The position numbers were made by a program. 44,227 bases of DNA. Origin: Escherichia phage ASU11. The DNA lies in the sequence record ON416862.2; one strand, given 5' to 3'. Positions 24,001 to 27,000 of this stretch are shown here, in pieces. Within the stretch, counting starts at the first letter, position 1. Every line of letters starts with the position of its first letter.

Positions 24001-27000
24001 CAGCTCCAGCTCACTGACTTTTTTATCGCGCTGCTCTTTGTAGGTTATGGCGTTATCGCGGTAATGATTAACAGCCCATAACAGACAGACGATGATGCAG
24101 ATAACCAGAGCGTAAATAATCGCGGTTACTCTTCTCACTGATCTATCCCCCAACAAGCTAATGCGCTTTCCTGGTCACGACGAATAACCTGTCCGTAGCA
24201 GTTATTTGAACGTGTGCGGCAATCACGCCCACCGTCCTTAATCCACCAGCGAATCGCCTCACACGCTCCCCTGCGATCACCTGCATTAATTCGTTTATAA
24301 AACGTCGACGGGAAACACTTACCGGGACCAATGTTGTACGGACAGAATGACGCGATACCTGCTTTTTGTGGCTCGGTCAGTGGAACTTTTATATTACGCT
24401 CCACCCATGCCAGCGCCTTATCCCGTTCGATAGCGTTAACCCGGTCGCATTTTTCCTTCGACAGCTTCATGCCAGGAATCACAGGCTTACCATCCACCCG
24501 GGTGGCTCCACGGCAGATGGTCCAGATACCCGCACCATCACGGTATGCCGTGGTGTGGTTACCTTCCTTTTCATCCAGAAACTGGTCGAGGATTTCAGGC
24601 GCAGAAGCACCTGCGGCAATCAGCGCCAGAACGGCAGCCGATAAACCATAGCGGAGTTTCCTGCTCATCAGCTTACTCTCCCCGTGCCGCCTTACGCCTG
24701 TCCTCTCTGATTTTGAAATACAGGTTCGTCAGGTACGTCAGCAGACCAAACAGCAGACTCCCCAGCACGCCTATTGCCGCCCACTGAGACGGGGAAACCC
24801 TGTCCAGCAACTGCAGGAACCAGTAGCCCGTTCCCACCGCTGACGTGGTGTATGACACACCTGTTGTGATTTTTTCCATCTGGTACATACCCCGTCTCCC
24901 GCAATCCGGAAGCTCACAACATGAAAAAGGCCAGCAGCTGTTTACTGATGGCCCTGACTCCCCGTTACAGCATCATGACCGATTCGGGTTGAGGTTCAGT
25001 CGCATCGGCGACCGGTGATTCAGGCTGAACTTCACCGCTCTCTGCGGTGGTATCTCCCGCTTCAGTCGGTGGCTCTGCCTGTACACCAAGCAGCTCATCC
25101 AGAATGGCATCAACCTCTGCATCAAGACGCGCTTCCAGGTTATGGCGAAGTTTTTGTTTCAGTGCGCTCAGGACTTCTTCAGAGCGCAGGACTTCCTTCA
25201 CTGCCTCAGCAGTGACCAGGGATGTAATTTCTGACATGGGATTTTCTCGTCGAAAGGTGTGATTAAGAAAGTTGCCGCTAAATGAGCGGCTCTTCGGGTT
25301 TGCTTCCGGCTGACTGACTGGCGCTGATTTTCTCAGCGGCCCTTTTGTCAATCTGTCTGCGCCAGAAGTCACGCATGGCCCTGTACCCACCCGAAAGGAG
25401 ATACAGCACACAGACCACCGTACAGAAGTACAGCATCAGCTGATGAATAAATGTCATAATTTCTTACCGTTATGGTTGACTAAGTAAACAGTTTTCATTT
25501 AAAAATGCCGATGACGAAAGTGGTAGTATCTTTCCTTGATTCTCCATGAATCTCACACCGCCAGAGGTCTCAGGCAACTGGCGGCTTTTTTTATCATGCC
25601 GCGGCATCCGCGTTGTTCACTTCCACCACAATGCTGTCAATCAGCACCGGGTAAGTCGCATTCCTGGTAATGTCTGTCACATGCAGTTTATCCGCCGCAA
25701 ATGCACTGACCGGTGACTGCGTCAGCGTGAACGGTGTGCCATCCTGACCATCAATAACCGGCGTCACCTGAAGGCTGTTATTCCCGGCAAAGCGGAAAGC
25801 CAGCGTATGCCATTCGTTATCAAATGCGCCAAAGGTTCCCAGTTTCAGGTTGTTTGTCGCCACTTTCGCATTGTGGTACATCACATTCAGGTCTTTTGCA
25901 TCTGTCTGGATGTAGAACGCTGCCAGCAGGTTATTCCCCCCGTCTCCGGTCAGGGCAACGCCCTGTGGCAGTGAAGATACCGGCCAGTAAAACGCCATAA
26001 CATACTGGTTCGCAGCCAGCGCTCCCGAAACCTTAAAGCGGCAGCGAATCTGCCCCCCTTTCTGTAACAGAGCCGCACCGTTGCCCGCGGCGTACTCCAG
26101 CACCCAGCTGCTTTTACCGGCTTCCTTGGTCAGCTTCACTGCCTTACCTCCGGTTCCCTCCGCATCGCTGACCACTTCTGCCTTGCCGCCACTGGCTGAC
26201 CATCCCTGTACTTTCAGGCTTCCCTCTGACTCGCTGGCAAGGTAAGAGAGCAGTGTTGTGACGCCTGTGGCTTCTGCACCGGAAGGCGATGACGGGCGCA
26301 CCTCTGATACTGTCGATGATGCCCCCGCGTTTAGCGCCACTCTTCCCGCATGGCGCAAAATCGCCGTTGCCAGACGGTCGGAAATAATCCCGCGTCGTGC
26401 CCAGGCGCTGAAATGGCTCGCCCTGTCCTGTGACGTCCAGGTGGCTGAGCTGTCACGCCATTTCGAACCGTAATATCCGATACCCGGAATGTCCGGGTCT
26501 TCTTCCGGTTTGTTCGTCGGCACATTCACCCCGTTCTCATCCGTCATGAATGGTACGAAATGGATATTCTTTTCCGTTTTGTTTTTGTAGCTGCCGTACA
26601 CCGTCTGGTACGTGGATTCGTTCTTCTGCTTCCAGAAATACGTCGTGTCCCCGCATATCCAGGGAACACCGCCAGCAGAGCCACCAACGCACTGACCTGC
26701 CATATCCGCCAGGTCTGCACGGAATTTATCAACCAGCGCACCAAACTGTGCGGCATGATTTGCCGGCGTCCCGCCAAAATCAAATTCCCCCTGCATCCAC
26801 ACCACGGCAAACAGCACATTTTTCGGGTTCTTCTTCAGTGCTGCTTTTGTTCGACCGATAAGGTCCTTATACAGCGGCTTGTCCACACCCCAGCGGGTTG
26901 AATTCTCCGAGGCACCACTCGCGTCACTGTATGTGCCATCGGCTCCGGTGGTGAACGCTGAACCACCACGACAGCACGGAACCAGCAGAATGCCCGCATT

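Follow-up and report, generated by a model that had tools for sequence, protein, structure and literature searches.

The window analyzed here, meaning the whole 44,227-nucleotide stretch of Escherichia phage ASU11 DNA (record ON416862.2), is an Stx2 lambdoid prophage at yecE, the minus strand of which carries the late operon. Within this strand, nanS-p, the gene for a sialate O-acetylesterase (DUF6645 / SASA family carbohydrate esterase in PGAP), occupies positions 25594-27540 and is followed by DUF1378, DUF826, holin and lysozyme genes, of which the DUF1378 family gene lies at 25278-25457. The spacer between nanS-p and the DUF1378 gene contains the plus-strand element at 25476-25592 with which we are mainly concerned.

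Four hairpins followed by T-runs had been placed on the plus strand by the first-pass annotation, and sequence inspection finds all of them in position. The nanS-p terminator (25558-25592) consists of CCGCCAG (25558-25564), a 13-nt loop, CTGGCGG (25578-25584), a C and seven T residues (25586-25592; U7 in the RNA), with a single A between the T-run and the complement of the esterase stop codon (tca, 25594-25596); RNAfold assigns it -15.2 kcal/mol and an inner 3-bp helix. The I terminator is CCCGCAG...CTGCGGG plus T7 (8437-8468), its T-run ending 5 nt short of the stop codon of I (8474). The third, GCCCGCG...CGCGGGC plus T8, lies at 27732-27761, and the fourth, GAGCCGGG...CCCGGC plus T7 at 37339-37364, has as its final T the first base of the rha stop-codon complement. 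A consensus scan of 20-39 kb found 34 terminator-like sites, versus 20.9 +/- 5.0 in shuffles, with those at 27732 and 37339 among the top four, and a site within the I terminator (8444-8460) is also listed. The nanS-p hairpin is absent from this list because its 13-nt loop exceeds the 8-nt limit of the scan.

The annotation's main reading was that these terminators end short plus-strand RNAs with promoters of their own, and it is supported by the finding that two of the four RNAs are near-identical to experimentally detected, Hfq-associated prophage small RNAs (sRNAs). The "wrong-strand" terminators are best read as ends of small regulatory RNA genes lying antisense among the late genes, a finding that is real and largely ordinary, given that two of the RNAs match ones validated in pathogenic E. 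coli and that the RNA at nanS-p is probably a diverged counterpart of a known one. At both Rfam thresholds, no family was found for 25476-25592, 8386-8468, 27579-27760 or 37279-37364, the only families in the window being STnc100, C4, isrK and tRNAs.

The spacer between nanS-p and the DUF1378 gene

The -35 hexamer TTGACT of the candidate promoter lies at 25476-25481 on the plus strand, with the ribosome-binding region of the DUF1378 gene just outside the promoter. The TTGACT-17-TTAAAA motif described earlier is present, TTAAAA standing at 25499-25504, and the A-rich -10 region (25499-25506) also offers TAAAAA at an 18-nt and AAAAAT at a 19-nt spacer, leaving the register ambiguous between 17 and 19 nt from the -35. 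The promoter consensus scan called nothing at 25476-25504 because TTAAAA matches only three of the six consensus positions and lacks the A at position 2 and T at position 6. What supports the putative promoter is how it compares with related sequences rather than its motif score, and the next plus-strand promoter-like site upstream of 25476 in the scan is about 1.4 kb away (24068-24096).

The RNA predicted from this promoter would span 25510-25592 on the plus strand (approximately 81-83 nt), its 5' end being placed by analogy and its 3' end by the T-run. The 85-nt stretch 25508-25592 folds modestly better than shuffled sequences (MFE -24.6 kcal/mol, z = -1.98). Two blocks, ACGAAAG and TTCTCCAT, are conserved within an otherwise variable RNA body. 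We also looked for a conserved ORF on both strands of the spacer and found none; a coding role was rejected, as neither the 12-aa plus-strand ORF in the 25510-25592 region nor the 25-aa minus-strand ORF is conserved in length or frame among the variants.

Among 78 related sequences, TTGAC[AT] occupies the -35 place in 77, the hairpin and T-run are found in 77, and ATCATG (i.e. the stop codon) follows the T-run in 75. The best-kept parts are the -35 (column conservation 0.974), the stem arms (0.94-0.99) and the T-run (0.986), whereas the RNA body scores 0.83, the loop 0.82 and the 3' end of the esterase gene 0.88. Moreover, the GCCAG/CTGGC core is invariant across 14 hairpin types while stem positions 2, 8 and 9 show compensatory pair changes, which only a manual tabulation of the Pas hairpins and stem extensions revealed; hairpin energies of the variants range from -11 to -22 kcal/mol. 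RNAalifold applied to 12 family members returns only an invariant 6-bp stem, with no conserved 5' hairpin and with no covariation, because the six core stem pairs never vary in the window's own family.

Part of this conservation could stem from the late mRNA on the sense strand, for example from the DUF1378 leader. Taken further, the spacer as a whole might serve the sense message, as a 3' stabilising hairpin of the stx2-nanS-p transcript, a processing site or a mini-ORF leader coupled to DUF1378, so that its look of a plus-strand terminator would be incidental. The hairpin does form in the sense RNA too, and the conserved sense ATG-GAG-AA, which is the complement of TTCTCCAT, opens a 25-aa ORF in the window that ends 10 nt before the DUF1378 start. 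The sense ORF, however, ranges from 4 to 25 codons among the variants, and a stabiliser needs no invariant A-run, which yields a U-tail on the plus strand only. In addition, the loci of the sRNAs PasA and PasC, which have no DUF1378 gene, retain both promoter and terminator, and we regard such a sense-strand role as very improbable.

Of 5426 complete E. coli genomes, 714 contain the element, and approximately 130 complete E. coli genome records carry the 25510-25592 RNA at 99% identity or more; in O104:H4-type phages the identity is about 98%. The type-2 variant is the commonest form among IMG/VR loci and fills the homologous spacer of Sakai Sp5, on the minus strand of NC_002695 at 1272086-1272219; this spacer is not among the Sp5 Hfq peaks listed in Tree 2014. 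A search of genome contigs with the pattern TTCTCCAT...CCGCCAG...CTGGCGG, which proved too permissive, returned at least 120 stretches, and among the matches listed nearly all genomes are unrelated, many of them high-G+C.

RNAs ending at the other three terminators

The I terminator is the 3' end of an RNA at 8386-8468 (plus strand), antisense between tail genes I and J, that is identical to the 83-nt PasB of E2348/69 at 82 of 83 nt, with one base different. The published PasB northern probe matches perfectly (100%) at 8441-8463, and E2348/69 PasB has the same antisense location between I and J and the same flanking genes. Judged by sequence, 8386-8468 is PasB. Its promoter, TTCACA-16-TATAAT at 8337-8364 on the plus strand (11/12 matches), is the best promoter-like site in 1-20 kb, although it would give a primary transcript about 15 nt longer than the 83 nt of PasB, a length reported from coverage.

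The 27732-27761 terminator ends an EcOnc08/21/42-type sRNA at 27579-27760 (plus strand), antisense to the esterase 5' UTR, which is identical to its EPEC counterpart ("E2348C_1409.E2348C_1408.IGR") at 170 of 182 nt (93%; twelve substitutions) and matches the EcOnc08 probe at 90%. The length of this type of RNA is about 271 nt by northern analysis (Tree 2014) versus an estimated 182 nt in EPEC. Convergent with it, and back-to-back at the 3' end, lies an STnc100/PasD-like RNA at 27762-27976 on the minus strand (Rfam RF02076, 159.4 bits versus a gathering score of 47). Convergent sRNA pairs 3' of toxin genes have been described (Tree 2014, Sy 2020), and the window pair resembles EcOnc08/21/42 with their STnc100/PasD/EcOnc27-type partners in being convergent, 3' of the toxin genes and upstream of the esterase; both the sequence identity and the pairing with STnc100 between the moron genes and the esterase agree with an EcOnc08 assignment. 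The anti-sRNAs AsxR and AgvB are comparable as late-region prophage sRNAs antisense to the toxin transcript in which a 3' terminator module is conserved and the 5' part varies. Neither gave a match within the window by Rfam (RF02703/RF02702, E <= 1) or BLAST, however, and the slot that corresponds to theirs holds the EcOnc08-type RNA here. HnrS (EcOnc10-12) is absent from the window, and blastn-short found no match in it for the EcOnc22/23/24, EcOnc13, EcOnc27, AsxR and AgvB probes.

Upstream of the rha terminator, the consensus scan finds a promoter-like site, TTGAAA-18-TATCTT with a TG extension (37243-37272, plus strand), of which TTGAAA and TGnTAT.TT persist in variants that are 72-73% identical. 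The candidate RNA of about 86 nt (37279-37364, plus strand) ends at the rha stop codon, is divergent from an isrK-like RNA and has an MFE of -28.0 kcal/mol (z = -3.18), none of 200 shuffles being as stable. Its 5' block, TGTTCTTGGATGTT, and its terminator are conserved around a variable middle, and the element occurs in 237 of 5426 E. coli genomes. The candidate is positioned after a cro-like gene, which we take to be the position of OOP on the lambda map. It has no Rfam family and no published probe match; our literature search found nothing on it, nor is a divergent RNA mentioned in the IsrK paper.

These neighbors bear on the other suggestion of the first-pass annotation, namely that the terminators simply insulate the late operon from convergent transcription. 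Pure insulation is disfavored because a conserved promoter or candidate promoter of its own precedes each terminator within approximately 80-180 nt. At nanS-p, this explanation would make the hairpin and T-run merely an insulator of nanS-p/stx2 from stray plus-strand transcription, with TTGACT being a chance or vestigial match and no functional RNA being made. It gains from the weakness of the -10 and the lack of a promoter call in the scan, from our finding no transcript evidence for this variant in the literature, and from the homologous Sp5 spacer having no listed Hfq peak. Nevertheless, the spacer is most conserved at its -35, which recurs at a fixed spacing in relatives of unrelated sequence that are proven as RNAs. 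Moreover, the nearest other upstream plus-strand promoter-like site is some 1.4 kb distant, and the three sister terminators each stand behind a promoter of their own, two of them belonging to known sRNAs. We consider an insulator without an RNA improbable.

Relation to PasA and PasC

In EPEC E2348/69, PasA (85 nt) and PasC (79 nt) lie on the opposite strand between the esterase and downstream genes ("> < >", "(> <) >"), and Zhu et al. place pasA/pasC between the sialic acid esterase and holin-lysozyme genes. Both RNAs are northern-validated, have Hfq-dependent stability and have the EHEC homologues EcOnc51 and EcOnc52. EcOnc52, at Sakai 1181998-1182075 (minus strand), gave a peak in Hfq CRAC and has a predicted Rho-independent terminator, and this interval coincides exactly with the unit that adjoins the esterase stop codon there; RNase E CLASH hybrids exist for EcOnc51 and EcOnc52. 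RNAs of this class are Hfq-bound with dozens of trans partners (RIL-seq, CLASH), and they are made in cells with an uninduced prophage, where they pair with many host and prophage mRNAs. The RIL-seq partners of PasA include the 3' region of its own neighboring esterase mRNA (listed as E2348C_0688 and E2348C_1246). The mapped 5' end of PasA and PasC is 7 nt past the hexamer TCAGAA, itself 17 nt from TTGACA, and TTGACA is found at the corresponding position in PasA, PasC, EcOnc51 and EcOnc52 although their spacers are unrelated.

In position, orientation, promoter spacing and predicted length, and in having a terminator that abuts the stop codon, the 25476-25592 element matches PasC/EcOnc52. Like PasC/EcOnc52 and PasA/EcOnc51, it is antisense between a sialate esterase gene and the lysis cassette, which is the esterase-to-holin/lysozyme location on the opposite strand given for pasA/pasC. 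It also shares with PasA and PasC a TTGAC[AT] -35 with an A-rich hexamer 17 nt further on, an RNA length (predicted here) within about 70-85 nt and a terminator built on a GCCAG/CTGGC core, in which the core is common to both and the changes are compensatory, with its U-run one base from the esterase stop codon. Set against PasA and PasC (79-85 nt), the candidate promoter at 25476-25504 has conserved -35 and spacing and would give an RNA of about 81-83 nt, with a weak -10 and no scan call. In contrast, the E2348/69 PP2 and Sakai Sp12 loci have no DUF1378 gene and carry two units in tandem, whereas the window has a single unit adjoined by a DUF1378 gene.

The RNA bodies are unrelated by BLAST and profile searches. 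With blastn-short, PasA and unit 2 matched the window locus only at the T-run (25583-25592), and the PasA, PasC and PasD probes have no match in the window; the full PasC sequence was compared through the profile only. An nhmmer search of the window family against PasA/PasC/EcOnc51/52 gave a best E of 0.033 at the terminator only, which is not significant, and homology to PasA/PasC at the sequence level is therefore not claimed; the reverse search with a Pas profile finds nothing at 25476-25592. The predicted PasA seed, GCCAGCACCU, is likewise missing from the window RNA, GCCAG alone being in common. Expression, 5'-end or Hfq-binding data for this variant were not found in the literature, nor was any entry near ECs1210 in the published CLASH tables or any paper pairing DUF1378 with an sRNA.

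The 25510-25592 RNA could instead belong to a separate, undescribed sRNA family typical of Stx2 phages, having in common with PasA/PasC only a promoter and terminator "cassette" and carrying a new body, ACGAAAG...UUCUCCAU. Such an RNA would control a regulon of its own or, in cis, act on the stx2-nanS-p-lysis transcript, tuning lysis timing and toxin release, and the rha-adjacent 86-nt RNA might similarly represent a new antisense RNA of the immunity region, at the OOP position. We hold this proposal to be doubtful. Judged by the sequence elements, their conservation, the compensatory stem changes and the common layout that we observe, and by the published status of the relatives, 25476-25592 is most probably an unnamed, diverged member of the PasA/PasC-type class. 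It would then be a plus-strand sRNA gene antisense to the late operon, with its own sigma-70-type promoter (TTGACT and a weak A-rich -10 17-19 bases on), transcription starting near 25510 and stopping at the CCGCCAG/CTGGCGG hairpin and U7 to give an RNA of about 81-83 nt. This RNA would be the positional and architectural counterpart of PasC/EcOnc52 and PasA/EcOnc51, presumably a trans-acting base-pairing regulator expressed from the resident prophage, while the nanS-p terminator would also keep its transcription from running antisense into nanS-p and stx2. For this variant we infer transcription, the exact 5' end, Hfq dependence and trans action by analogy with these relatives, and its targets probably differ from those of PasA/PasC because the RNA body differs.

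Prophage sRNAs link Shiga-toxin phages to the regulation of their hosts, published examples being AsxR, AgvB, StxS and HnrS. If expressed, the 25510-25592 RNA would be an unannotated regulator directly between the toxin/esterase and lysis genes, as well as an example of modular sRNA evolution in which promoter and terminator are fixed and the body is swapped. Zhu et al. defined Pas members by blastn and filtered their phage-genome search at >75% query length; BLAST surveys with the E2348/69 Pas sequences would miss this widespread same-locus variant, which adjoins stx2 in this phage. The general principle has been in print from 2014 to 2026 and the gain is incremental. For annotation, the present result explains "wrong-strand" terminators of lambdoid late regions as the ends of sRNA genes.

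Antisense layout and lambda OOP

In lambda, the OOP RNA is short and antisense, starts from a promoter of its own, stops at an intrinsic terminator and converges on a gene's 3' end; it belongs to the immunity/replication region and overlaps the cII coding sequence. Taken as a whole, the first-pass annotation is supported in its main reading of short plus-strand RNAs and not favored in that of pure insulation, and its comparison of the 25476-25592 RNA with OOP holds for geometry only. The relatives already described bind Hfq and have trans targets by RIL-seq and CLASH, and the predicted RNA does not reach into the esterase coding sequence.

A mainly cis-acting RNA, in the antisense role of OOP as cited in Sy 2020 (reference 21), would pair with the late transcript and lead to RNase III cleavage or an elongation block, uncoupling stx2/nanS-p expression from the lysis genes or damping leaky late transcription in lysogens. 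Its full complementarity to that transcript would extend from the esterase stop codon to a point some 50 nt short of the DUF1378 start. By construction, the RNA is a perfect complement of the sense transcript over 25510-25592, the esterase mRNA 3' region is among the PasA partners noted above, and the RNA converges on a gene's 3' end as OOP does. The RNA, however, overlaps neither the esterase coding sequence nor the DUF1378 ribosome-binding site, and its relatives bind Hfq and have dozens of trans partners, although cis and trans action are not mutually exclusive. We rate a mainly cis-acting role as unlikely.

Compared by layout rather than by sequence, the candidate 25476-25592 RNA is thus like OOP in being short and antisense, with its own promoter and intrinsic terminator, and convergent on a gene's 3' end. 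Unlike OOP, it lies in the late region and would stop at the stop codon (T-run end 25592, stop codon 25594-25596) without overlap of the coding 3' end of the convergent gene. The OOP-like position belongs instead to the rha-adjacent candidate.

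Prophage layout and plus-strand terminators

The window, a lambdoid Stx2 prophage, has a minus-strand late operon. Reading leftwards, the prophage carries Q (31297-31677), three tRNAs, stx2A (28332-29291), stx2B (28051-28320), an STnc100-type RNA matched in Rfam (27762-27976 (-)), the sialate O-acetylesterase gene nanS-p (25594-27540), a DUF1378 gene (25278-25457), and genes for DUF826, a class II holin, lysozyme and Rz, followed by the terminase, head and tail genes as far as J (4640-8131). At 36.5-39.2 kb, the immunity region holds cI-like and cro-like genes, rha, isrK/C4 and an anti-repressor-type gene, and the integrase lies at the right end, adjoining yecE. 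The 401 bases round the element at 25476-25592 (+) show 100% identity to E. coli 2013C-4991 and 98% to an O104:H4 strain. Strain 2013C-4991 differs from the window by 43 nt in length near the cos/small-terminase region (~23112-23423), and its K-type C40 peptidase gene (window ~9010-9795) is frameshifted according to PGAP. The tRNA at 29558-29633 (-), called Met (anticodon CAT) by ARAGORN and tRNA-Ile by PGAP in 2013C-4991, is probably one of the lysidine-modified Ile tRNAs that are found upstream of stx.

Direct reading of the sequence recovered every plus-strand terminator placed by the first-pass annotation beside the stop codons of nanS-p, rha and I and at 27732-27761, together with its promoter motif. 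The nanS-p terminator (25558-25592 (+)) consists of CCGCCAG, a 13-nt loop, CTGGCGG, C and T7, folds at -15.2 kcal/mol (RNAfold), with one base between it and the esterase stop-codon complement. At I, rha and 27732, the hairpin stems are G+C-rich and 7-8 bp long, and the tails are T7-T8. Our consensus scan gave 34 terminator-like sites in 20-39 kb compared to 20.9 +/- 5.0 in shuffles, with 27732 and 37339 ranking within the top four of this region and 8444-8460 also in the output; the nanS-p hairpin is missing from it solely because its loop exceeds the scan's loop limit. The promoter proposed upstream of this hairpin is present as a motif, TTGACT-TTAAAA, although its -10 is weak, matching 3/6 consensus positions without the two key ones, and the scan makes no promoter call there.

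Known and candidate small RNAs at the other terminator sites

Judged by sequence match, two of the four terminator sites are already known RNAs, and the small-RNA reading of the first-pass annotation was essentially right. Coordinates and probes are available for five prophage sRNAs that Pearl Mizrahi et al. 2021 validated in EPEC E2348/69. Their PasB probe matches exactly at 8441-8463, window 8386-8468 is identical to PasB at 82/83 nt, and PasB occupies an antisense position between the tail genes I and J in the window and E2348/69 alike. The PasB promoter, TTCACA-16-TATAAT (8337-8364), is the top promoter-like site that the scan gives for the first 20 kb. Between this promoter and gene J lies a perfect 10-bp hairpin (8238-8269), CCCCGGTATC AGCA GATACCGGGG, with T-rich tails on each strand; it resembles a terminator acting in both directions within the tail operon and is absent from the terminator scan output.

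The second known RNA, at 27579-27760, is identical at 170/182 positions to the EPEC sRNA E2348C_1409.E2348C_1408.IGR, which Pearl Mizrahi et al. 2021 equated with EcOnc08/21/42 of EHEC Sakai; for the EcOnc08 probe the match is 90%. Convergent sRNA pairs have been described at this site, where the next conserved ORF follows the genes inserted after PR' (Tree et al. 2014). Here the convergent partner is the STnc100/PasD-type RNA, 27762-27976 (-); the two 3' ends abut within 1-2 nt (27760/27762), with back-to-back terminators at 27732-27761 and 27773-27792. AsxR and AgvB are absent from the window by BLAST and Rfam models.

The rha-adjacent site is a candidate gene for an RNA of ~86 nt within 37243-37364 (+), with an extended -10 promoter and a terminator that overlaps the stop codon of rha. 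The scan places TTGAAA-18-TATCTT, with TG before the -10, at 37243-37272 (+), upstream of the GAGCCGGG hairpin, and the 86-nt RNA folds at -28 kcal/mol (z = -3.18). It occurs in 237 of 5426 E. coli genomes, and variants of 72-73% identity, which differ in the middle, have in common the -35, a TGnTAT.TT -10, the 5' block TGTTCTTGGATGTT and the terminator. Published probes, Rfam and the IsrK paper yielded no counterpart. The candidate is divergent from the isrK-type RNA and lies after the cro-like gene, antisense at the rha 3' end, the position that OOP has relative to cII on the lambda map. Rfam matches to isrK and C4 antisense RNA above gathering scores (37122-37198 and 37010-37097) fall within a CDS that PGAP names 'ash family protein' (36593-37255 (-)); since this locus also resembles the Gifsy-1 isrK-orf45-anrP arrangement, the annotated N-terminus may be RNA, not protein.

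Conservation of the element beside nanS-p

Eighty IMG/VR loci, recovered via the DUF1378 protein, comprise 49 different upstream regions and 30 different sequences from promoter to terminator. TTGAC[AT] is in place in 77 of the 78 sequences with full flanks, the hairpin and T-run are kept in 77/78, and 75/78 have ATCATG, with the stop codon in it, after the T-run. Column conservation is highest in the -35 (0.974), stem arms (0.94-0.99) and T-run (0.986), and lower in the RNA body (0.83), loop (0.82) and esterase 3' end (0.88). Over 14 hairpin types the GCCAG/CTGGC core is invariant, with stem positions 8 and 9 being C-G/T-A/T-G and G-C/A-T; position 2 is C-G in the window's family versus A-T in the Pas family. 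From one subfamily to another, the sequence separating -35 and -10 is wholly different at constant spacing, and the body retains the blocks ACGAAAG and TTCTCCAT.

That the hairpin is a pure insulator seems improbable to us, being a poorer fit to the conserved -35 and to the A-run/T-run asymmetry. A sense-strand mRNA element likewise fits these two features less well, and we regard this reading of the conserved spacer as more improbable still. A minus-strand ORF of 25 aa (25470-25547, MENQGK...) shortens to 4 or 15 aa in other variants and, like the 12-aa plus-strand ORF (25511-25549, MTKVVVSFLDSP), is not conserved among them in length or frame, unlike the sense-strand ATGGAGAA. The 131-nt promoter-plus-RNA stretch is found in 714/5426 complete E. 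coli genomes, at an identity of at least 99% in 130 records and 60-80% in 559, and carries no RNA gene annotation in those matched.

Relation to PasA and PasC

According to Zhu, Shabalina and Storz (2026 preprint), pasA and pasC have the sialic acid esterase gene on one side and the holin-lysozyme genes on the other. Both RNAs (85 and 79 nt; EHEC homologues EcOnc51/52) are oriented opposite to both neighbours (Table S6, Pearl Mizrahi et al. 2021). Read on the sRNA strand, the PasA/PasC/EcOnc51/52 units comprise TTGACA, a 17-nt spacer, an A-rich hexamer (TCAGAA or TGAAAA), a ~50-nt body, a GCCAGC...GCTGGC hairpin and T7. An A and then the esterase stop-codon complement come directly after the T-run in PasC, the second unit of prophages PP2 (E2348/69) and Sp12 (Sakai), and Sakai Sp4; the EcOnc52 Hfq CRAC peak of Sakai (1181998-1182075, minus strand, terminator predicted) coincides with the stop-abutting unit. 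Reported PasA and PasC 5' ends lie 7 nt past the hexamer, as expected for a primary start. At the PasA/PasC loci of E2348/69 and Sp12, a sense-strand hairpin with a T-run, GCCGTCAGTGGGTGACACTGGCGGC TTTTTT (comparison loci L001 2832-2868, L085 739-774 and L004 383-419; weak profile match), separates the PasA/PasC promoter from the gene downstream (the holin gene in PP2 and Sp12) and would end late-strand transcription just ahead of holin.

The element beside nanS-p likewise has TTGACT, 17 nt, TTAAAA, ~75 nt to a CCGCCAG...CTGGCGG hairpin, T7, A and tca, the stop-codon complement. By analogy, its RNA would start near 25510 and be ~81-83 nt long, in agreement with the ~80 nt first proposed. PasA and unit 2 match 25476-25592 in BLAST only at the T-run, the profile of the window's family finds only the PasC terminator (E = 0.033), the reverse Pas profile does not match the window, and RNAalifold detects only the invariant stem within the window's family, which together place the element outside PasA/PasC by the literature's sequence criterion. 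The homologous Sakai Sp5 spacer (1272086-1272219) is not among the listed Hfq peaks, which is weak negative evidence because the list holds top peaks only.

We consider it likely, by analogy, that the element encodes an independently transcribed ~80-nt sRNA of the resident prophage, acting via Hfq on trans targets like PasA/PasC/EcOnc51/52; its terminator would in addition protect nanS-p and stx2 against antisense read-through. A mainly cis, OOP-like action on the late transcript, although compatible with trans action, is a rather unlikely alternative. Lambdoid prophages of pathogenic E. coli are already known to show this phenomenon, and the site beside nanS-p is probably an unnamed, diverged member of this known sRNA class: it has a different body from PasA and PasC and resembles them in position and orientation, in the architecture of its candidate promoter and of its terminator, and in the stop-codon junction.
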